This document shows positions 6,632-16,237 of a stretch of DNA of 32,000 nucleotides, in pieces. The notes below the pieces were generated by a model, which saw nothing but the letters and a program-made list of their open reading frames with translations, was not told where the DNA came from and searched no databases. This DNA comes from Cupriavidus necator (GTDB lineage Bacteria; Pseudomonadota; Gammaproteobacteria; Burkholderiales; Burkholderiaceae): NCBI RefSeq assembly GCF_016127575.1, contig NZ_CP066018.1, forward strand, positions 3,570,001-3,602,000, in the 5' to 3' direction. How positions within the stretch are numbered: the first letter of the stretch is position 1; the number at the start of each line of letters is the position of its first letter. The translations under genes were made by a program, and so were the position numbers.

Positions 6632-6727
6632 GGCCTGACGCACTGGACTAATGTCAGGCGCAGCCAACCTGGATGTAGAAGGCTATTTTTGCCCGTTCCC
6701 CGAAAACTGGAAATCTCCCGCCAGCCC

Positions 6728-7196
6728 TTAACAGGCAAGGCTTTGCGGGGTGCGATTGATCTTGAAAGTGGGCCGAACGAGCCCTTCCCGGCCATCGAGC
6801 CTGTATTGTTCGGGGGAACTCAGTCGGAGGACGCAGCCGGCGACAGTGAGAAGCTCAGAAGTTGTAACCTTGGTCGCACCGGTAGTGCCAGTCTGAGACA
6901 GCAAGTCGCGTACTCTGGCCGGCGCGAACCGGGACGAGTTGGGCAAGGGACACGACGATCTCGCGCTGGTTGTGCTGCATTTGAACAAAGATGGAGACGC
7001 GGCACAGCTGGTCATGAGCGAGCCCAGTGACGGAGACTCGTTCGCCGGAGCGAAGCGGGCTGGGCGATCTCGTGCACGAGCTGTTTGCGCGTGCGCGTGA
7101 GGTCGCGCAATTCCTGTGTCGCTGCGGGCGGCACGAAGCTGGCGCGGATCAGGCCATGCGCCAGCAGGTCGGCGATCCACATCGCGTCGGAATTCC
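6728..7196 (-). mobile_element. IS110-family transposase N-terminal remnant (frameshifted, 5'-truncated)
   Basis: Minus-strand translation gives ...NSDAMWIADLLAHGLIRASFVPPAATQELRDLTRTRKQLVHEIAQ..., the hallmark IS110 segment (D-x-DA-x-IA-x-LL-x-G-L-x-x-S-F-VP...QELRDLTR-x-RK). Further related pieces (…SELLTVAG..LR..PEQ…LDGR) lie in other frames down to about 6728. Confidence 0.5.
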
Positions 7197-7560
7197 ACCA
7201 CGGGTAATGGCACGCAGCAGCCAGCGGATATTGAATCCCACCGCACAGAGCACTGGGCGCAGCGCGTCGCCGATTTGCCCTTCAGCCAGCACCTGCGCAT
7301 GCCGTGGTTGTATGGCCGATGAGGCTCAACAGTCTGGCGACGTTTGAGCCAACGGCGTTGTTCTGCATAGAGCGATGACCGCCATACGGGTTGCCGGGGA
7401 AGCTGCGCGCGCCCCACGATCCATCCCTGCCTGGCGGTGATCGTCAGGCAGACTTGCCGATGCATTCAACCTCCGGCGCATGCAGCGCGTACAGCTTGTT
7501 CTTGTCTTTGGGCGGCAGGCGGTCGAGGCGCCAGGCGCGCTCGATCCAAACCTGCGATCC
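7197..7560 (-). mobile_element. IS5-family transposase C-terminal remnant, multiple frameshifts
   Basis: The minus-strand pieces are VWIERAWRLDRLPPKDKNKLYALHAPEVECIGK, ...RRWLKRRQTVEP / LIGH / HGMRRCWLKG / GDALRPVLCAVGFNIRWLLRAI. They are spread over three frames but follow the order of IS5-group DDE transposase C-termini. Confidence 0.55.
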
Positions 7561-7630: not shown

Positions 7631-7882
7631 AGGGCTTGAGTGTTGCCCCGAGTGGAATCTCTCCCGGGCCATTCTACCGAAGGCTTACTGCAACACAGCC
7701 ACGCAAGGGGCAAGGCCACCTCTCGCGAGGAAACTGCTCGTCGGCAGCGGAACGGTTCACGCTCGCCGCCTGATCCCCGCGCATTGGCTGGATGGAAAGC
7801 GTTTCCCTTGCCGCCCGCAAGTACCGCTGCGCCGAAACCGCTAGAGTCGCCCACGCCGCGGTTGCCGCCGTCCGTGGGCATC

Positions 7883-7994
7883 GTGAAGAAAATTTGAGGT
7901 TTGTGCGACGCAAGCGTGAGCCCTGTTTCTCATACTGCAGCACAGAGACAGCTACCCCTACTGTCCATCCAAATCTGATGTCGGGGTATGAATC
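7883..7994 (+). promoter_or_regulatory. conserved promoter/5'-leader block, copy A (paralog of 15798..15910)
   Basis: Hand alignment with 15798..15910 gives roughly 70% identity. Perfectly shared islands are GTGAAGAAAATTTGA, CAAGCGTGAG, CATACTGCAG and CAGAGACAG. The distance to the ATG is almost the same (112 vs 113 nt). Confidence 0.55.
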
Positions 7995-8606
7995 ATGAAG
8001 AGAGAACAGATCAGCCGCGGTGCCAATGCAACCATGCTCGCGCAGTGCATCGCCGACGCTGCCACGCAGGTACTTGCCGCGCGAGGCGACGGCGAGCAAG
8101 CTATGAAGGGTAGCGAGGCAGGCTGGCAGGCGCCGGTCGCGCAGTGCGAAGCGGCAGGCGAGCCGCCGCTTGGCGCACACTTGGTCACGCAGCGTCGCGG
8201 CTACAGCCACCACGGCATATATGTGGGCAACGGCCGCGTGCTGCACTATGCGGGCCTTTGCCGTGGGCTGCACACCGGGCCGGTGGAAGAGCTGAGCCTG
8301 GAACACTTCGGCGCCGGCCATGGCATCGAGGTAAGAACCGAGTCGCTGCCGCGTTTTACCAGCGACCAAGTGGTCAGGCGGGCACGCTCGCGCTTGGGCG
8401 AGAACCGCTATCGCCTGCTGAGCAACAACTGCGAACACTTCTGTACCTGGTGCCTGTATGGCGAAGCCCGCAGCGAGCAGGTCCGCCAATGCGCCATCCA
8501 CCCCATGCGCATACTCCGCGTGCTGAGCTCCCTGCTGTCAGTTTGGTGGAACAGCCGGCCAGCCCATGCGCTGCTTGCAGCCGGCTTCAATGATCGCTCT
8601 CCCTAG
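7995..8606 (+). CDS. LRAT / NlpC-P60 superfamily (lecithin retinol acyltransferase-like) protein with a bufA-derived 5' end
   Basis: 203-aa ORF. The catalytic-type motifs are YSHHGIYVGNGRVLHYAG and YRLLSNNCEHFCTWCLYGEARSEQV. The first ~30 codons are about 74% nt-identical (49/66 over the first 22 codons, counted by hand) to the signal-peptide codons of the DUF2282 gene at 15911. Confidence 0.75.
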   Translation: MKREQISRGANATMLAQCIADAATQVLAARGDGEQAMKGSEAGWQAPVAQCEAAGEPPLGAHLVTQRRGYSHHGIYVGNGRVLHYAGLCRGLHTGPVEELSLEHFGAGHGIEVRTESLPRFTSDQVVRRARSRLGENRYRLLSNNCEHFCTWCLYGEARSEQVRQCAIHPMRILRVLSSLLSVWWNSRPAHALLAAGFNDRSP

Positions 8607-8741: not shown

Positions 8742-8861
8742 TCAGGCCTTGTTGCCGAGGCTAAGATCGGCGTCCAAGTCACAGGCGGTTCGGCGCTGCG
8801 CCTGCTCGGCGACCACGAGCCGATCGGCGAGCGCCGCCGCCTCGGCTTGAGACCGCGCCAA
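8742..8861 (-). pseudogene. internally deleted KfrA-like remnant (41 codons)
   Basis: 8765-8865 aligns by eye to 2535-2625 joined directly to 3341-3356 of the larger kfrA-like gene. It translates as MARS|QAEAAALADRLVVAEQAQRRTACDLDA..., compared with MARSPTD... and ...EAQAAALADRLAAAEQSQRKAANDLDA in the large copy. Confidence 0.5.
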
Positions 8862-8872
8862 ACCGGGGCTGA

Positions 8873-9235
8873 TTAAGCGGCAAAGCGGTGGTCGTTTTCA
8901 TCGGCGATGGAGGGATACCATCGTTCAGAATGCGGGGCTGGTCATTGAGCACGGCCGTCCGGATCTGTAGCAGTGCGTGCGCGTGCTGCAGTCGCCAGGC
9001 CATCTGTTGCCGTTTGACGAATCGCTTGCTGATCACCTGGTTGACGGCCGATTCGACGAAACCCGATGCAACGTGCTCCCCGTGGCGGAAGCGGTCACCG
9101 CAGTTCACGATGAAGTGCCGGCTGTTATCCAGATAGACGATGAACTCCTCGAGCTTGCCGAGGAGCTTGGCCTCCTCGGGAATGGCCTCAGCGTCGAGAT
9201 CCCAGTAGCATCGATCTGGTGTCGTCTGCGCGCAG
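8873..9235 (-). mobile_element. transposase C-terminal fragment (family uncertain, possibly ISKra4-like), with an internal frameshift
   Basis: The minus strand reads CYWDLDAEAIPEEAKLLGKLEEFIVYLDNSRHFIVNCGDRFRHGEHVASGFVESAVNQVISKRFVKRQQMAWRLQHAHALLQIRTAVLNDQ. The frame then shifts to ERWYPSIADENDHRFAA-stop (TAA at 8873-8875). The pattern (ES-x-VN-x-x-ISKRF-x-K-x-QQM-x-W...LLQ-x-RT-x-x-LN) is transposase-like from memory. No N-terminal half is present. Confidence 0.45.
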
Positions 9236-10145: not shown

Positions 10146-10664
10146 GTTGGTCCAGGTCCTGTTTCCTAGGCATTAAGAGGGGTTGAGCCGGGCCGGCGCA
10201 AGCGCACTTCGACATTTTCATGACGGTCCGCGACGGGTTTAAACTCGGACAGACTGATTGTCTGTCCTTGGTATGTAGTGTGCGCAACGGAACTCACGCC
10301 TTTATCCGTTAAAGATCAAATTTCCGTCACGGCGCACCATTGAGCGCCTATTTGTCCCCTCTATCGGCTATCCATGCAGAAGCGATGAAGCTAGCCGCGT
10401 CACGCTCTGATGGTTAAAGCCACCCCATCGAGCAACTGGTCAAGCAGCAAACCGGTTACGCTGTCATGCGACGTAAGAGCGGGACGGTGGCAAGGACGGA
10501 TTCGAGATTCCTTATGTGGGCATTGCCATGCTCGATCGCGTGCGTGGAAACGCTACATCGGGGGGGTGTCTGATCTGCTGGCGCCGCGCATCGGACCATG
10601 ACGCGTCAGGCGGCGACACATGGCGTGGCCGACAAGCGGCGTTCCCGCGCCGCCCGTCGCTGCG

Positions 10665-11930
10665 TTATCCGGCACCGGGCGCTGCCTGTGCCCGGGTCAG
10701 GTGTTCAAGGACGGCTTTGCGCTCTATCTCGGCGGCGGCACGCGCGGTAAAGATGCGGTACACGTAGTCCATCAGGACTTCTTCCTCCTTCATCTTTCGA
10801 ATGTTGAGGAAGGCCATGTGCCCGATCACCTTGCCCTGACTGTCCTGGATGGGCAAGCCGTAATAGGATTCGAAGCCCTGCTCTCGCGGAAACAACTTGC
10901 CAATCCCCTCCGGGTAGAACACCGGCAAGCCATGGTCGAAAACCGCCTCGCAAGGCGTGCCGGCCAGGTCGTACTCGACGTTGTCGCGAAAGTCATCCTT
11001 GAACCAGAAGGCCAGCGTGTGGACACGCCGTGGCGGCCACCTGGTACATTCCGTAACGAAGGCGCAGGGGACGTCCAGTGCGCCAGCGAAGTGGCGGACC
11101 AGTGCGCGGAAAAATTCGTCGCCACAGGTGCCGGAGGTGCCCTCGACGATGTGCTTGAGAATCTCTTCGACGCGCCTGATACGGGTCACATCGGTATCCA
11201 GGCCGACCAGCCGCAATGCCTTGCCGTTGGCATGGCGAATGGCGCTGCCCAGCGAATTGACCCACCGGTAGTACCCGTCCTTGTGCAGCAAGCGGCACTG
11301 CTGCTGATAGCGCGGGCTGGCACCCTCGAGGTGGCGTGCCATCGCCTGCTCGACCGCGAGCAGGTCGGCGGGATGTACCCGTTCTTTCCAGGCCTGCAGG
11401 CTATCCGGCAGTTCGTCTTCTTCAAAGCCGAGCATGGCCTTCCAGCGTTGCGACAGGTGGAATTCGTTGGTCTGGAAATTCCATTCCCACTGGCCGTCAT
11501 CGGCGCTGCGCATGGCCAGGGTATAGCGTTCTTCGCTGGAACGCAGCGCGATTTCCTGCTGTCGGCGCTGTTCCATCGACAACGCCAATGTGCTTTGCGA
11601 CGACTCGACGCACGCGCGCAAGTCCGTGACGACCTGGCGAATCTGCTCGAATTCATCAGGGGGCTTGCCGCGGCCGGCGCCATCGTTGCGTGATACCTGG
11701 GATGCGGCGCAACTGCGCAGCAGCGCGCTAAGCGGACGTCCCCAGAAGGCGTGAATAGCAAGGGCGAGCACGCCAAGCAGCAACGCCAGCCCGGCCGCCG
11801 CCACCAGTGCGATGCCCGTGCGCGTGCCGGGCGGGCCCGCGCCGGGCACCCAGCCGAGCAGGAGGTAGGCAATCAGCAGCAGGCTGATCAATGCCGGCGG
11901 CAGCAGCAGCTTTGCTCTCAGGCCCATCAT
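10665..11930 (-). CDS. membrane-anchored PAS-GAF sensor protein without a recognisable output domain
   Basis: 421-aa ORF with two N-terminal hydrophobic segments. A PAS-like block follows (ERYTLAMRSADDGQWEWNFQTNEFHLSQRWKAMLGF...VHPADL...YRWVNSLGSAIRHANGKALRLVGLDTDVT), then a GAF-like block (FFRALVRHFAGALDVPCAFVTEC...YYGLPIQDSQGKVIGHMAFLN). The stop comes right after the GAF linker helix. Confidence 0.7.
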   Translation of the reverse strand: MMGLRAKLLLPPALISLLLIAYLLLGWVPGAGPPGTRTGIALVAAAGLALLLGVLALAIHAFWGRPLSALLRSCAASQVSRNDGAGRGKPPDEFEQIRQVVTDLRACVESSQSTLALSMEQRRQQEIALRSSEERYTLAMRSADDGQWEWNFQTNEFHLSQRWKAMLGFEEDELPDSLQAWKERVHPADLLAVEQAMARHLEGASPRYQQQCRLLHKDGYYRWVNSLGSAIRHANGKALRLVGLDTDVTRIRRVEEILKHIVEGTSGTCGDEFFRALVRHFAGALDVPCAFVTECTRWPPRRVHTLAFWFKDDFRDNVEYDLAGTPCEAVFDHGLPVFYPEGIGKLFPREQGFESYYGLPIQDSQGKVIGHMAFLNIRKMKEEEVLMDYVYRIFTARAAAEIERKAVLEHLTRAQAAPGAG

Positions 11931-12228
11931 GATTCTCTTTCTGTTCCGCCCCCGTCGCTACAGACGCGCATCACAACAGGTGCCTTTTGCTTTACAGCTT
12001 GCGCGGTTCTGTGGAGGCATGCCACGTCCGCACCACCCTCGCGTGACACGCCGGCGCGAGCCCTTCCTAACATAGCCCACGATCCCGTCACCAACCAGTA
12101 CCGCGGAATCACGCCCGCACCCTGCCCATAGCGCTGATCGGAGGACTTAATTGAAGGCCGCGTGAGAGTTTCGTGATCTTTGTCGGCCAGAGTGGGGCTG
12201 AAGGAAACCGCCACCGACAGGACTTCCG

Positions 12229-13089
12229 ATGCTATCCACCAGCCTCCACCCCAATATGGGAGCCGCCATCCCGCCCCGGGCCGGGATCGGCTTGCGCGCC
12301 CCACACTATCGCCAGGTCCTGGCGGAAACGCCCGCGACAGGGTGGTTCGAAGTCCATAGTGAAAACTACTTCGGTGATGGAGGTCAGCCCCTGCACTACC
12401 TTGCACAGGTGCGGGCCGCCCACCCGCTGAGCCTGCACGGCGTCGGCCTGTGCCTGGGCGCTACGGACCGGCCGGATCGCGCGCACCTGCAGCGGCTGGC
12501 TGCCCTGCTCCGGCGCTTCCAGCCAGGGCTGGTATCCGAACATCTGAGCTGGGGCCGCATTGGAGACCGCTACCTCAACGACCTGCTGCCGCTGCCCTAC
12601 ACGGAGGAATCGCTCGCCGTCGTGTGCGAACACGTGCAGGAAGTACAGGACTACCTGCAACAGCAGTTGTTGGTGGAGAACATCACCAGCTATCTCCGGT
12701 TCAGCCACTCGACGATTGCCGAGCCCGAGTTCATCGCCGCGCTGGTGGCGCGAACCGGTTGCGGCATCCTCCTTGACGTCAATAACATCTACGTCAACGC
12801 GGTCAACCACGACACCGATGCATCGGGCTATATCGATGCGATCCCCGTGGGCGCGGTGAAGGAGATCCACCTGGCTGGCTTTGACCACAGCGGCGGCATG
12901 CTGATCGACACCCACGGCCAGCGCGTGGCAGAGCCGGTATGGAGACTCTATCGGCATGCGCTCGCCCGCTTTGGCCCGGTTCCGACCCTGATCGAGTGGG
13001 ATACCGACATTCCCCCGCTCGAGGTACTGCTCGACGAAGCCCGCAGGGCAGACCAGATGCTGGAGACCGACGATGCCTTCATTGCATGA
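12229..13089 (+). CDS. bufB: MNIO / DUF692 family enzyme (bufferin-type RiPP maturase, BufB/GigA-like)
   Basis: 286-aa ORF with motifs AGIGLRAPHY, WFEVHSENYF, LSLHGVGL, LVSEHLSW, VENITSY and EIHLAGF, which are characteristic of the TIM-barrel DUF692 family. An alternative start is ATG 12256. Confidence 0.8.
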   Translation: MLSTSLHPNMGAAIPPRAGIGLRAPHYRQVLAETPATGWFEVHSENYFGDGGQPLHYLAQVRAAHPLSLHGVGLCLGATDRPDRAHLQRLAALLRRFQPGLVSEHLSWGRIGDRYLNDLLPLPYTEESLAVVCEHVQEVQDYLQQQLLVENITSYLRFSHSTIAEPEFIAALVARTGCGILLDVNNIYVNAVNHDTDASGYIDAIPVGAVKEIHLAGFDHSGGMLIDTHGQRVAEPVWRLYRHALARFGPVPTLIEWDTDIPPLEVLLDEARRADQMLETDDAFIA

Positions 13090-13879
13090 GATCCAGTGTC
13101 GTTTTGCCCGGGCGGTGCTCGAGCAGGACCCGGCTGCACTGTTCGACCACATCGTCGGCGGCGCCATGGACGCGCAGCGGAGCCTCGGCATTTACGCCGG
13201 CAACGTGCGCCACAACTTGTGCGAGGCGCTGCGCGCCGTATTCCCCGTGATCGAGCGCCTGGTGGGCGAGCCGTTCTTCGATGCCACGGCGGGCCGGTAT
13301 ATCCGGGCCTGCCCATCCACCAGCGGCGACATCCAGCGCTTCGGCAAGAGCTTTCCGGACTTCCTCGCGCAATTCGGACCGGCTGCGGGCGTGCGCTACC
13401 TGCCCGATGTGGCAAGGCTCGAATGGCTGACGCATGAGGTTTTCCATGCGGCAGACGCCGAGCCGCTCGCGCTGAAGCGCCTGGGCGCGCTCGCCGAGGC
13501 TGATGCCGCATGCCTGCGCCTGAAGCTGAACCCGGCCTGCCGCTTACTCGCGTCCCCATTTCCGGTGCTGCATATCTGGCAGGCGAACCAGCCAGATCAT
13601 GCGGACGCTATCGAGATCGACGCCGACAGCGGCGGCGACTGGCTGCTGGTCAGGCGCAGCGGCTTTGTGGTCGAAGTGCAGTCCCTGAATGTCGGCGAAT
13701 ACGCCATGCTCGACGCACTGGATGGCGGTGCCGCGCTCGAGCCGGCGTATCAGCGGGCGCTGCAGGCTGCGCCCGGCTTCGCACTGGCCGACTTTATCCA
13801 GCGACGCATCCTAGACGCGACGATCATTGATTTCGACGCCTGCGCTGCTGGCCTTATCCCCGCGCCAGGTCGATCGTAA
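13073..13879 (+). CDS. bufC: DUF2063 family partner protein of MNIO enzymes (BufC/GigB-like)
   Basis: 268-aa ORF overlapping bufB by 17 nt. The N-terminus LHEIQCRFARAVLE...LGIYAGNVRHNLCEALRAVFPVIERLVGEPFF...YIRACPSTSGDIQRFG is typical of DUF2063. The DUF692-DUF2063 pairing is canonical. Confidence 0.75.
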   Translation: MPSLHEIQCRFARAVLEQDPAALFDHIVGGAMDAQRSLGIYAGNVRHNLCEALRAVFPVIERLVGEPFFDATAGRYIRACPSTSGDIQRFGKSFPDFLAQFGPAAGVRYLPDVARLEWLTHEVFHAADAEPLALKRLGALAEADAACLRLKLNPACRLLASPFPVLHIWQANQPDHADAIEIDADSGGDWLLVRRSGFVVEVQSLNVGEYAMLDALDGGAALEPAYQRALQAAPGFALADFIQRRILDATIIDFDACAAGLIPAPGRS

Positions 13880-14906
13880 AGGCAGTGCCCTTGCCGAGCG
13901 CGCTGCGCACACGGATCTCGCCGCCGTGCAACTGCACGATGCGCCGGCTGATGGCCAGCCCGAGACCGACGTTGCTGCCATTGTCAGACTCCGTACGCTC
14001 CACTCGGTAGTAACGGTCGAACACACCCTGCACCTGGCTCGTGTCTATGCCCTGGCCGGTATCGCGCACGGTCAGTTCGACGCGCTCCCCGGCGGCCTGG
14101 ACGTCGACGCTGATTTCTCCGCCGGCAGGCGTATAGCGCATGGCGTTCTCGATCAGGTTCTCCAGCACCCGCTCGATCATGCCGATATCGGCGCTCACCG
14201 GCGGACAACCGGGACCTGACGTCGCCAGCAGGGCCAGCCCGCGCTTGTTTGCCGCCAGGGCGAACTTCTGGACCACGTCCTGCGCCAGTTCCGACAACGG
14301 GAAGCTCTCCAGCCGCGGCTGGACCTCCCGCGCTTCGAGCTTGGTCAGGTCAAACAGGTCCTGCACCAGCTTGCCGAGCCGTTCGCAATGCCTGGTCGCC
14401 ACCTGCAGGTAGCGATTGCGGTCCTCGGGCGTCATCTCTTCGGCTTTCAGCAGCAGCATTTCCAGGTAACCCTGCATCGATGCGAGCGGCGTACGCAGGT
14501 CGTGGGAGACATTGGCAAGCAGCTCGCGCCGTTGCTGGTCCACCTGTGACAGCTGGGCGAGCTGCGTGACAATCCGCTCGGACATCTCCTCGAACGCCGT
14601 GCTGAGCTTCTGGATCTCGTCGTCCGCACGGCCGTCTCGCGCCAGTCGCACCGGCGTGGAAAAACCGCCAGCCCGGAATGCCTCGATGGCCTCCGACAGC
14701 ACGCGCAGCCGTACCGTCAACAGCCGAAACACGATCAGCGCCGCCACCAGGCTGAAGGCCACCGTACCGATAATGAGGTCGGTCGCCAGTTCGATCAGGC
14801 GCTGCGTCTCGATCATCTTCTGGGAGGCCAGGATCATCAGCGCGCCGATGGTAATGAACACCGCCATCAGCACCACCGCCAGCCTGCCGTAAAGGGTGCG
14901 GATCAT
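13854..14906 (-). CDS. sensor histidine kinase (two TM helices, very short external loop, HAMP-HisKA-HATPase)
   Basis: 350-aa ORF. The H-box is LLANVSHDLRTPLASMQGYLE, the N-box VLENLIENAMRYT, the G-boxes DTGQGI and GLGLAI. About 15 aa (SQKMIETQRLIELATD) lie between the two hydrophobic helices. Its 3' end overlaps the bufC 3' end by 26 nt, convergently. Confidence 0.85.
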   Translation of the reverse strand: MIRTLYGRLAVVLMAVFITIGALMILASQKMIETQRLIELATDLIIGTVAFSLVAALIVFRLLTVRLRVLSEAIEAFRAGGFSTPVRLARDGRADDEIQKLSTAFEEMSERIVTQLAQLSQVDQQRRELLANVSHDLRTPLASMQGYLEMLLLKAEEMTPEDRNRYLQVATRHCERLGKLVQDLFDLTKLEAREVQPRLESFPLSELAQDVVQKFALAANKRGLALLATSGPGCPPVSADIGMIERVLENLIENAMRYTPAGGEISVDVQAAGERVELTVRDTGQGIDTSQVQGVFDRYYRVERTESDNGSNVGLGLAISRRIVQLHGGEIRVRSALGKGTAFTIDLARG

Positions 14907-14939
14907 GGAATCCCCTTTCCCTTCCCCTATTGCGCCCTA

Positions 14940-15638
14940 TTACGTATTGCAGAACTTGTAGCCCACGCCCCAGACGGTCTGGATGTACTCCGGCTCGTTG
15001 GGGTCGAGTTCGATCTTGGCGCGCAGCCGGTTGATATGCGAACTTACCGTGTGCTCGTAGCCACTGTGGCTATAGCCCCAGACCTGGTCCAGCAACTGGG
15101 CGCGGCTGAAGACGCGCCCCGGATTGCTGGCAAAGTAGAGCAGCAGCTGGAATTCCTTGGCGGTGAGGCAGATCGGCGTGCCGCGCACGCTCACTTCACG
15201 CTTGTCGATATCGATGTGCAGGGCCTTGACCTGCACCGTCCTGGGACCATCGGATGGCGGGTTGGCCAGGGTGTCGACCAGCCGGAAGATCGCCTTGACC
15301 CGCGCGGTCAGCTCAAGGACGCTGAACGGCTTGGTCAGGTAGTCGTCGGCGCCCATCTCCAGTCCCAGCACCCGGTCCAGTTCAGTCGAGCGCGCCGTGA
15401 GCATGAGGATGGGGGTATAGCGCGGTTCCGCGCGCAGGCGCCGACAGATTTCCAGCCCGTCGGCGCCCGGCAGCATCAGGTCCAGGATGACCAGGTCATA
15501 GGGACGACTCAGCGCCTCTTCCAGTCCCGCCCTGCCGTGGTTGATCACCTTCACGTCGCAAGACAGCCCGCTCACCTGCAGCCGTACCAGTTCGGCGATA
15601 TCTGCGTCGTCCTCGATCACCAGAACCTGGCGCGACAT
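14940..15638 (-). CDS. OmpR/PhoB-family response regulator
   Basis: 232-aa ORF. The receiver reads VLVIEDD...DLVILDLMLPGADG...MLTA...KP. The winged-helix C-terminus reads LTAKEFQLLLYFASNPGRVFSRAQLLDQVWG...HINRLRAKIE...IQTVWGVGYKF. Confidence 0.9.
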   Translation of the reverse strand: MSRQVLVIEDDADIAELVRLQVSGLSCDVKVINHGRAGLEEALSRPYDLVILDLMLPGADGLEICRRLRAEPRYTPILMLTARSTELDRVLGLEMGADDYLTKPFSVLELTARVKAIFRLVDTLANPPSDGPRTVQVKALHIDIDKREVSVRGTPICLTAKEFQLLLYFASNPGRVFSRAQLLDQVWGYSHSGYEHTVSSHINRLRAKIELDPNEPEYIQTVWGVGYKFCNT

Positions 15639-15797
15639 GGCTTTACCTCATCTTGAAACCTGCGGGATACCGGCATGACCTTCCTTGCCGCCTGGATTGC
15701 GGCGTGGGAGCCACTGAACCATTCTAGAACGCATTTCAAGGATGGAAAGCCCTCCGCCGGCGTGGCCAAGATTGGGGCCCGCCAGCACCCAGGCGCC

Positions 15798-15910
15798 GTG
15801 AAGAAAATTTGAAAATTGAGCGAAACAAGCGTGAGTTCGGCTTTCCATACTGCAGTCCAGAGACAGGGATTTCTCCTGTCCTGAACCCAAGCAAATACGG
15901 AGTGCGCATC
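15798..15910 (+). promoter_or_regulatory. conserved promoter/5'-leader block, copy B (paralog of 7883..7994)
   Basis: It lies in the 272-nt divergent intergenic region between the response regulator and the DUF2282 gene. It shares GTGAAGAAAATTTGA, CAAGCGTGAG, CATACTGCAG and CAGAGACAG with copy A. It also contains a tandem GAAAATT-t-GAAAATT. Confidence 0.55.
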
Positions 15911-16237
15911 ATGAACAGTGATCAAATTATCCGCGGCGCGATTGCAGGCATGCTGGCGCTTGGCATTGCCGGCGCTACCTCTCAGGCCATGGCAGCGGCA
16001 GGCAGCAATGAAAAATGCGCGGGCATTGCCAAGGCCGGCAAGAACGACTGTGGCACCAGCAAGAGTTCCTGTGCCGCCACGGCCAAAATGGACCGCGACG
16101 CGGAAGCCTGGATCCTGGTTCCCGCGGGCACTTGCGAAAAGATCGCCGGAGGTCGGCTGCAGACGTCCCAGTTTGCCAAGCCAGGTGGCAAGAGCGGCGA
16201 ACTCAGCCCGGCCGCCAAGGCGGCCCACCCGGCCTGA
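15911..16237 (+). CDS. bufA: DUF2282 Sec-signal Cys-containing peptide (bufferin BufA1/GigP-like RiPP precursor)
   Basis: ATG 15911 lies within track ORF 15809..16237, with a GGAG SD at about -13. The signal peptide is MNSDQIIRGAIAGMLALGIAGATSQAMA. The core is EKCAGIAKAGKNDCGTSKSSCAATAK...WILVPAGTCEKIAGG, with four Cys spaced C-x10-C-x6-C-x20-C. A 27-aa Lys/Ala/Pro-rich tail follows. Confidence 0.8.
   Translation: MNSDQIIRGAIAGMLALGIAGATSQAMAAAGSNEKCAGIAKAGKNDCGTSKSSCAATAKMDRDAEAWILVPAGTCEKIAGGRLQTSQFAKPGGKSGELSPAAKAAHPA

Follow-up and report, generated by a model that had tools for sequence, protein, structure and literature searches.

A gene for an LRAT-type enzyme in Cupriavidus necator has captured the promoter and start codon of a bufferin precursor gene. 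The LRAT-type gene forms a 203-amino-acid open reading frame (ORF) at 7995-8606 of a 32,000-nucleotide stretch of the genome (RefSeq assembly GCF_016127575.1, contig NZ_CP066018.1, positions 3,570,001 to 3,602,000). We call this whole stretch the window and use its own numbering, with features on the plus strand unless stated otherwise. An intact copy of the donor gene, bufA, lies in the same window at 15911-16237. The event is a promoter and start-codon capture, in which a gene for a lipid enzyme appears to have taken its expression signals from a gene for the precursor of a ribosomally synthesized and post-translationally modified peptide (RiPP). We consider it probable that this capture placed the LRAT-type gene in a bufferin regulon under two-component control, for which a candidate regulator is encoded next to bufA.

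The LRAT-type gene is preceded by a copy of the bufA control region

The donor gene has the attributes of a genuine bufferin precursor gene. Its 108-amino-acid product carries a signal peptide, a DUF2282 domain (PF10048, E 7e-24) and four Cys residues, and neighboring genes encode MNIO and DUF2063 proteins. The parental promoter/operator block of bufA occupies 15797-15851, and an NDH-2 gene follows bufA downstream.

Local alignment of positions 7700-8250 with 15650-16200 pairs 7882-8070 with 15797-15986 over 192 columns at 73% identity, with a score of 117. Dinucleotide-shuffled controls gave a mean of 22 (standard deviation 2.4, maximum 34), placing the match at z ~39. The duplication is therefore real, as proposed in a preliminary description of this DNA that had aligned the two segments by hand and suggested a shuffled control. 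The particulars given there also hold. The identity between 7883-7994 and 15798-15910, put at roughly 70%, is 72%, and each of four shared islands occurs exactly twice in the window (7883/15798, 7911/15826, 7931/15846 and 7943/15858). The spacing from the start of the block to the ATG is +112 in the LRAT copy and +113 in bufA. Likewise, 49 of the first 66 coding nucleotides and 15 of 28 residues are identical between the two copies.

The chimeric ORF can be divided into three parts. The first begins with a ribosome-binding region and ATG of bufA origin (7983-7997), with GGGG where bufA has GGAG; the ATG at 7995 is conserved in 5 of 5 lineages for which DNA is available. Codons 1-33 (7995-8093) are a decaying remnant of the bufA signal-peptide region, as judged by the nucleotide identity given above, by substitution rates and by an interrupted hydrophobic region (h-region). 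A variable linker (8094-8159) follows, and the third part is the LRAT/PLAAT-type core of the NlpC/P60 superfamily with a C-terminal hydrophobic tail (8160-8606).

The core is recognized by Pfam as LRAT (PF04970) over residues 57-158, with E 1.2e-25 and 90.5 bits against a cut-off of 24.3. Residues 55-165 match HRASLS2/PLAAT structures in the PDB, including PLAAT3, and both catalytic-motif strings are present, HHGIYVG with the His and NNCEHF with the Cys of NCEHF. In these respects the predicted enzyme resembles the PLAAT/HRASLS phospholipase-acyltransferases. The chimeric nature of the ORF that had been noted earlier is borne out, since Pfam finds LRAT and no DUF2282 in the 203-residue product. 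The ORF is accordingly not a bufferin precursor gene, the 70 codons that carried the DUF2282 domain having been deleted. It also differs from native homologs, which start 15-35 residues before the string EPPLGAHL and have sigma54-like sequences upstream, whereas the window protein carries a 54-residue foreign N-terminal extension.

The 5′ limit of the copied segment is less sharply defined. An 11-mer, GGATGGAAAGC, had been reported upstream of both genes (7790 and 15740). By itself this match is not significant in pairwise alignment (score 22 versus 19 ± 2.5 for shuffled sequences). The longer string that contains it, CGCATT-N4-GGATGGAAAGC, is nevertheless conserved 5′ of bufA in the Cupriavidus orthologs L001, L013 and L016. 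In the bufA copy, this string (15730-15750) overlaps the −35 element of a sigma70-like promoter on the minus strand, which is probably the divergent promoter of the response regulator and histidine kinase genes described below. The duplication probably begins at the corresponding string (7780-7800), where the matching minus-strand −10 is absent. Taken together, the alignments show that the DNA from 7780 or 7882 to 8093 is, by sequence, a paralogous copy of the bufA control region and 5′ end.

Relatives retain stages in the decay of the fused precursor

The closest relatives of the LRAT protein (72-95% identity) all have N-terminal extensions that begin like bufA. The most informative is P0001/L004, where LRAT and DUF2282 are encoded in one 276-amino-acid ORF whose product is 95% identical to the window protein. 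Its DUF2282 domain is nearly intact, with Cys3 replaced by Trp. L004 is homologous to the window bufA locus over 15792-16142 at 72% identity, a span that extends from the promoter block to three codons beyond the fourth Cys. The other relatives have decayed in different ways. L002 keeps a full-length bufA part that has lost all four Cys codons, L020 has lost the middle of DUF2282, and L021 has lost both the signal-peptide h-region and DUF2282 while keeping the frame.

Relative to L004, the window allele carries a single, exact 210-nucleotide (70-codon) in-frame deletion with its junction at 8093/8094, which eliminates the DUF2282 core together with some of the linker. The segment that is missing from the window is flanked in L004 by the imperfect direct repeats GGCGACAGCGAG and GTCGCCAGGGAG. 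The same deletion allele is present at 97.8% identity on a plasmid of C. oxalaticus X32 (L022), in a second, degraded buf locus, and thus it is not an assembly artefact.

Because relatives retain a nearly complete bufA and the window has the deletion, we conclude that the promoter and most of bufA were duplicated, and that decay and trimming followed. This revises the proposal that recombination had grafted only the regulatory and N-terminal module of a bufferin precursor gene onto the LRAT-type gene. L004, L002 and L020 keep most of the bufA paralog in frame before LRAT, and the shorter window allele is secondary, a product of the 210-nucleotide deletion.

Four substitutions relative to L004 lie within about 20 nucleotides 3′ of the junction (8094-8120; GCG ACG AAC ... 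GTG to GCT ATG AAG ... GAG), in a region whose flanks are otherwise ~95-98% identical. This cluster creates Met37 (ATG 8103), which is found in the window and X32 allele only. A new internal start may be evolving at this codon in the window allele.

We also considered the possibility that the linker is the former promoter or 5′ untranslated region of a native LRAT gene, a lead that came from a sigma54-like TGGC-N-TGCA seen by eye. This idea was dropped because local alignments with three native upstream regions gave z ≤3.

Selection has kept the promoter block and the reading frame

Divergence among the LRAT-linked copies shows that selection keeps two things, at least by the measure of sequence comparison: the 55-nucleotide promoter/operator block (7882-7936) and an open frame from the bufA ATG into LRAT. 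In loci that were ascertained via the LRAT protein and not via the block, divergence of the block is 0-0.28, compared to synonymous divergence (dS) of 0.18-1.38 and to 0.05-0.85 for the 60 nucleotides upstream, and this ordering holds in 10 of 10 pairs. This amounts to a 3-10-fold slower rate for the block than for synonymous sites. The ratio of nonsynonymous to synonymous divergence (dN/dS) is 0.07-0.31 in the LRAT core, indicating purifying selection, and 0.35-1.05 in the first 26-30 bufA-derived codons, which is near neutral. From these patterns we infer that LRAT is expressed from the captured promoter, ribosome-binding site and ATG, and that the intervening peptide is free of constraint.

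The behavior of the reading frame is consistent with this interpretation. In six lineages, 55, 125, 136, 102, 71 and 66 codons separate the bufA ATG from EPPLGAHL, and every one of these spacers is in frame and free of stops. By our own estimate, the probability of keeping the frame by chance is ~(1/3)^5 if at least five length changes were neutral. The test rests on six lineages because a metagenome scan with GAAAATTTGAGNTTTGNGCGA for further LRAT-type blocks added none; its three matches were all AT-rich chance matches.

An alternative view is that the block and N-terminal codons are a mere pseudogene remnant of a second bufA, that LRAT is expressed independently from Met37 (8103) or from another promoter, and that the long ORF exists by chance because of high G+C content. 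The coding part does behave like a pseudogene, in that protein constraint is relaxed (the dN/dS values above), the Cys residues have disappeared and the signal peptide is degraded. An internal ATG exists in the window and X32 allele, the JGI gene call for L002 starts at an internal Met, and insertion sequence (IS) fragments lie on both flanks of the LRAT gene. However, neither frame disruption nor regulatory decay is seen in the bufA-derived part: the frame is open in 6 of 6 lineages despite six different spacer lengths, and the block is conserved, changing far more slowly than its own upstream flank as well as synonymous sites. In addition, no internal start is shared among the lineages, and the upstream region typical of native LRAT homologs is different and is absent here. 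On balance, we regard this alternative as improbable.

The same data bear on two suggestions made in the preliminary description. Its idea that the segment is the scar of a destroyed second bufA is the closer one for the coding part. It does not extend to an accidental second buf locus beside an "IS graveyard," and the scar is not inert, since the promoter block is under purifying selection and the frame into LRAT has been kept across independent indels. Met37, offered as an alternative start, is ACG in L004, and hence it is not a conserved start.

It is less probable still that the fusion is a functional targeting graft, wherein the bufA signal peptide was kept so that an LRAT-type enzyme would be exported to the periplasm, the compartment in which bufferins act. 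The N-terminus does derive from a Sec signal peptide. P0003, the only LRAT copy that is still signal-peptide-like, retains about 29 consecutive uncharged residues and an ALA-A site, and a short hydrophobic core is kept in L004 and X32. In contrast, the h-region of the window copy is broken by Q and D, its Kyte-Doolittle maximum is 1.29 versus 2.31 in bufA, and its longest uncharged run is 12 residues versus 25. The LRAT copies in general have uncharged runs of ≤12 residues, Kyte-Doolittle values of 1.0-2.0 and D, E, R or K inside the h-region; L002, L020 and L021 have R, D or K there or have no h-region. L021 deleted the entire h-region and still kept the frame, and near-neutral N-terminal evolution also argues against selection for export.

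The block has the architecture of a response-regulator promoter

The block before the LRAT-type gene contains the units CGTGA (7882-7886), TTTGA (7893-7897), GCGA (7905-7908) and CGTGA (7915-7919). After the last unit come N11 and a −10-like hexamer, CATACT (7931-7936). Among 23 instances, invariant GA cores occur at columns 28, 39, 50 and 61, which corresponds to four units with an exact 11-bp period. These features were taken from alignment positions that the search pattern did not impose. The consensus reads CGTGA, TTTGA, gcGA, CGTGA, N11 and CAYACT, followed by CA 7-8 nucleotides on, and the block contains no sigma70 −35 element. The conserved CA (7943-7944 in the LRAT copy), which occupies invariant columns in alignment A1 7-8 nucleotides past the hexamer, is the predicted transcription start.

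Tandem direct repeats at ~10-11 bp thus replace the −35 element. OmpR/PhoB-family regulators use such a tandem-repeat architecture, and in the pho box of PhoB/OmpR-type promoters ~11-bp direct repeats occupy the −35 region of promoters that have a −10 but no −35. Like those promoters, the block combines 11-bp repeats, a −10-like hexamer, no −35 and an OmpR/PhoB-family regulator gene next door. The likeness is drawn from sequence alone and has limits: the unit is (C/T)GTGA, unlike that of the pho box, and no curated family includes an ortholog of the candidate regulator.

The window holds further copies of the block, which the preliminary description had missed. A third copy on the minus strand (10277-10331), also conserved in C. 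oxalaticus, C. consociatus and metagenomic relatives, precedes a DUF4148 gene (10145-9879) and a gene for a small secreted protein (9689-9426). The small protein, of 87 (probably ~75) amino acids, contains GMRDV(Y/F)TDG repeats and is not assigned to any Pfam or NCBIfam family. C. oxalaticus (first locus), C. consociatus and the metagenomic relatives lack the DUF4148 gene, and there the block lies directly 5′ of the small gene. A candidate leader peptide in the third copy (ATG 10221, +109 from the block) was rejected because its start is ATC in the first C. oxalaticus locus and is not conserved.

Finally, a degenerate block, GA-N9-CGTGA-N6-CGTGA-N11-CAGAGT, is located 5′ of bufB (12153-12193). 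Its CGTGA-N6-CGTGA and −10-like hexamer, at the spacing of the block, are invariant across six genera. This site implies that bufBC would be co-regulated with bufA despite their separate transcription units. Because the same architecture precedes bufA, bufBC and the small secreted-protein operon, the LRAT-type gene would have been added to the local regulon for bufferin synthesis.

A genome scan with the pattern GTGA-N6-TTTGA-N17-CGTGA-N11-CANACT returned 14 loci. Nine of these are 5′ of bufA, in Cupriavidus, Ralstonia, Burkholderia, Paraburkholderia, Trinickia, Caballeronia and an unclassified Burkholderiaceae bacterium, with the bufA ATG at +107 to +114. Two loci are 5′ of the small-protein gene, one separates bufC from a DoxX-like gene in a Burkholderiales metagenome-assembled genome (MAG) with canonical bufABC order (L007, 2394-2447), one is divergent from a PAS-response regulator-histidine kinase operon in an Accumulibacter MAG (L012, 135-188), and one is a chance match. 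Unfused LRAT homologs in other Cupriavidus and in Paraburkholderia have neither the block nor buf neighbors, and thus LRAT would have joined the regulon through the duplication.

Upstream of the unfused Cupriavidus homologs (L026 and L027, 5700-6000), a shared TGGCATGCC(C/G)CATGCAGT resembles a sigma54 −24/−12 promoter and is accompanied by TTGATCATTTGATCAAA palindromes. This suggests that a different, enhancer-dependent mechanism controls the native LRAT genes.

A two-component system adjoins bufA in six genera

The buf locus of the window is split into several transcription units. bufB (MNIO; 12229-13089, PF05114, E 1e-109) and bufC (DUF2063; 13073-13879, PF09836) are followed on the minus strand by genes for a histidine kinase (13854-14906) and an OmpR/PhoB-family response regulator (14940-15638), beyond which lies bufA. 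The kinase has two transmembrane helices joined by a loop of ~12 amino acids, and appears to sense within the membrane. On the other side of bufBC, a minus-strand gene encodes a PAS membrane protein (10665-11930) that is conserved in synteny and is a possible accessory sensor. The order PAS (minus), bufBC (plus), kinase and regulator (minus) and bufA (plus) holds in all bufA loci from six genera (L001, L006, L008-L011, L013, L014, L016-L019 and the window, 10665-16237). The regulator/kinase pair adjoins bufA and the block in 9 of 9 species-level loci from these genera.

The adjacent OmpR/PhoB-type response regulator with its kinase is the most likely candidate for the activator that binds the block. 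Shared regulation of both genes by this system had been put forward as plausible, and the comparative evidence favors it, since four units phased at 11 bp occur beside the same regulator/kinase pair in six genera.

One possible objection is that duplication and capture occurred as described, and that the block is a promoter for an extracytoplasmic function (ECF) sigma factor or a cis-regulatory RNA, not an operator for a response regulator. Bufferin (Buf1/DUF2282) loci are described, in the searched text of two papers, as bufABCD gig operons under SigF/NrsF control (Leprevost et al. 2024, PMC11626156; PMC12452194). Moreover, TTTGA-N17-CGTGA can be read as an ECF-like −35 and −10, and the leader contains a conserved inverted repeat. 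However, the split buf locus has neither DoxX nor SigF/NrsF, no sigma70_r2/r4 or NrsF domain was found among the ORFs scanned in the window, and no sigma or anti-sigma gene belongs to the conserved synteny. The SigF motif GTAACC-N16-CGAA (PMC3511200) has 17 matches in the window versus 15.3 expected, none of them at the four block promoters, so a SigF-type promoter was rejected. An ECF promoter would also leave the four-unit 11-bp period and the CAYACT at N11 unexplained.

The RNA version of this objection centers on the inverted repeat GACAG-N9-CTGTC (7947-7965), which falls where the transcript is predicted to begin. In the alignment, 87% of cells are paired at this register versus 32-45% when it is slid. 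The repeat could be a 5′ stem-loop, or else a DNA palindrome or protein site. A known RNA element was ruled against by four results: no Rfam match in the window at the gathering threshold, no consensus structure predicted by RNAalifold, weak covariation, and ordinary leader folding z-scores (−0.01 to −2.3). In the LRAT leader (7952-7986), the predicted minimum-free-energy fold lacks the conserved hairpin of this repeat and instead pairs CCCC of the hairpin-loop region with the GGGG of the ribosome-binding region, with a z-score that is not significant. Considering both versions, we find an ECF promoter or regulatory RNA to be a doubtful explanation, and retain a response-regulator operator as the preferred one.

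A model for the capture

The observations can be combined into the following model. At least 350 bp, comprising the promoter/operator, leader, ribosome-binding site, ATG and coding sequence through the fourth Cys codon of DUF2282, were duplicated in front of an LRAT/PLAAT-type gene, such that the copied part of bufA was read in frame into that gene. The peptide-coding part then became non-functional, as its Cys residues were lost, its signal peptide eroded and its sequence evolved near neutrality. Different lineages trimmed it independently, in the window by the 210-nucleotide in-frame deletion between short imperfect repeats. What remains would now supply LRAT with transcription and translation initiation. 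The block is proposed to act as an activator-dependent promoter, in which four units with an 11-bp period take the place of the −35 and are followed by N11, the −10-like CAYACT, a start ~8 nucleotides downstream and an inverted repeat at the 5′ end of the transcript. The activator would most likely be the adjacent OmpR/PhoB-family regulator with its kinase, and we can only guess that the signal for the regulon is metal or envelope stress.

Several points weigh against this model. The six lineages of the frame test are not fully independent, and high G+C content makes chance open frames likelier. The newly gained Met37 could be the real start in the window allele, and the N-terminus of P0003, which is still signal-peptide-like, may mean that the enzyme is exported in some lineages. 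The candidate activator was chosen by its adjacency and by motif architecture only, and the response regulator reaches no curated family cut-off and falls in no curated orthologous group. The combined block pattern, designed post hoc, finds exactly four sites in the window, and an nhmmer profile of the block misses the site upstream of bufB. Furthermore, the inverted repeat has just two compensatory events with a covariation score not above controls, and the leader folds are not unusual.

Relation to known bufferin systems

The window locus shares with known bufferin loci a DUF2282 precursor with a Sec signal peptide and four Cys, an MNIO bufB and a DUF2063 bufC. It differs from bufABCD operons in being split into bufBC, an opposite-strand kinase-regulator pair and bufA, and in lacking DoxX. 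Unlike the SigF/NrsF loci, it has instead a conserved two-component system and a PAS protein. In the searched text of the two bufferin papers, the fusion partners given for Buf1 are cytochrome c, FGE-sulfatase, MerC and Buf1, and LRAT is not listed; two-component systems, response regulators and LRAT are not mentioned in that text (PMC11626156, PMC12452194). Our literature search found no paper tying DUF2282 to such a two-component system in Burkholderiaceae. An apparently undescribed two-component operator for bufferin loci of this family is plausible from the sequences compared here.

More broadly, it is possible, at somewhat less than an even chance in our view, that bufferin loci of Burkholderiaceae are run by an undescribed, ECF-independent two-component circuit. 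This circuit would consist of a kinase with apparent sensing inside the membrane, an OmpR/PhoB-type response regulator and a PAS membrane protein, acting through four (C/T)GTGA-type units with an 11-bp period. In one Cupriavidus clade, it would have recruited a PLAAT/LRAT-type enzyme via the bufA promoter and start codon, with the enzyme translated as a fusion to a decaying leader. If this is true, then the bufferin stress response would include membrane-lipid remodeling as a co-regulated arm. The operator motif and candidate regulator would apply to a large group of Burkholderiaceae bufferin loci that lack the SigF/NrsF known from Caulobacter, and the extra regulon members (the small secreted repeat protein, the DUF4148 protein and the LRAT/PLAAT enzyme) could hint at the signal of the system.

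Chimeric genes can arise by partial duplication, when a promoter and 5′ coding sequence are fused in frame to an unrelated gene whose expression is thereby rewired. The present case is unlike general cases of this kind in that stages of donor decay survive in relatives (nearly intact, Cys-less and variously deleted) and in that the donor is a RiPP precursor gene. It offers a natural series of gene fusion by promoter and start-codon capture, in which the statistics indicate that only the expression signals and the frame are kept. There are also consequences for annotation. The 203-amino-acid ORF should not be named a bufferin precursor or a secreted protein, and joint matches to DUF2282 and LRAT in relatives represent decaying fusions, not a new bifunctional family.

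Related loci and flanking insertion sequences

The sequence closest to the window is chromosome 3 of R. pickettii RAL3, with 97-99% amino-acid identity. There are two buf loci on the C. oxalaticus X32 plasmid. The first (L001, 163667-188046) is complete and ~85% identical to the window. The second (L022, 349817-366581) is ~97% identical and degraded: the PAS gene, bufBC, most of the kinase-regulator pair and the small-protein gene are deleted, and the 3′ end of LRAT is interrupted by an insertion of ~1.27 kb. In the metagenomic locus L020 (1165-3680), the PAS gene lies directly 5′ of the unit formed by the block, the bufA remnant and LRAT, on the same strand, a position held elsewhere by the small-protein promoter.

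In the window, the LRAT-type gene is flanked by IS fragments (6680-7550 and 8849-9205), which include an integrase/calcium-binding-protein-like region and IS5-family and ISKra4-family transposases. The long ORFs in these two intervals have no Pfam match, which fits the earlier characterization of the surroundings as an IS graveyard.

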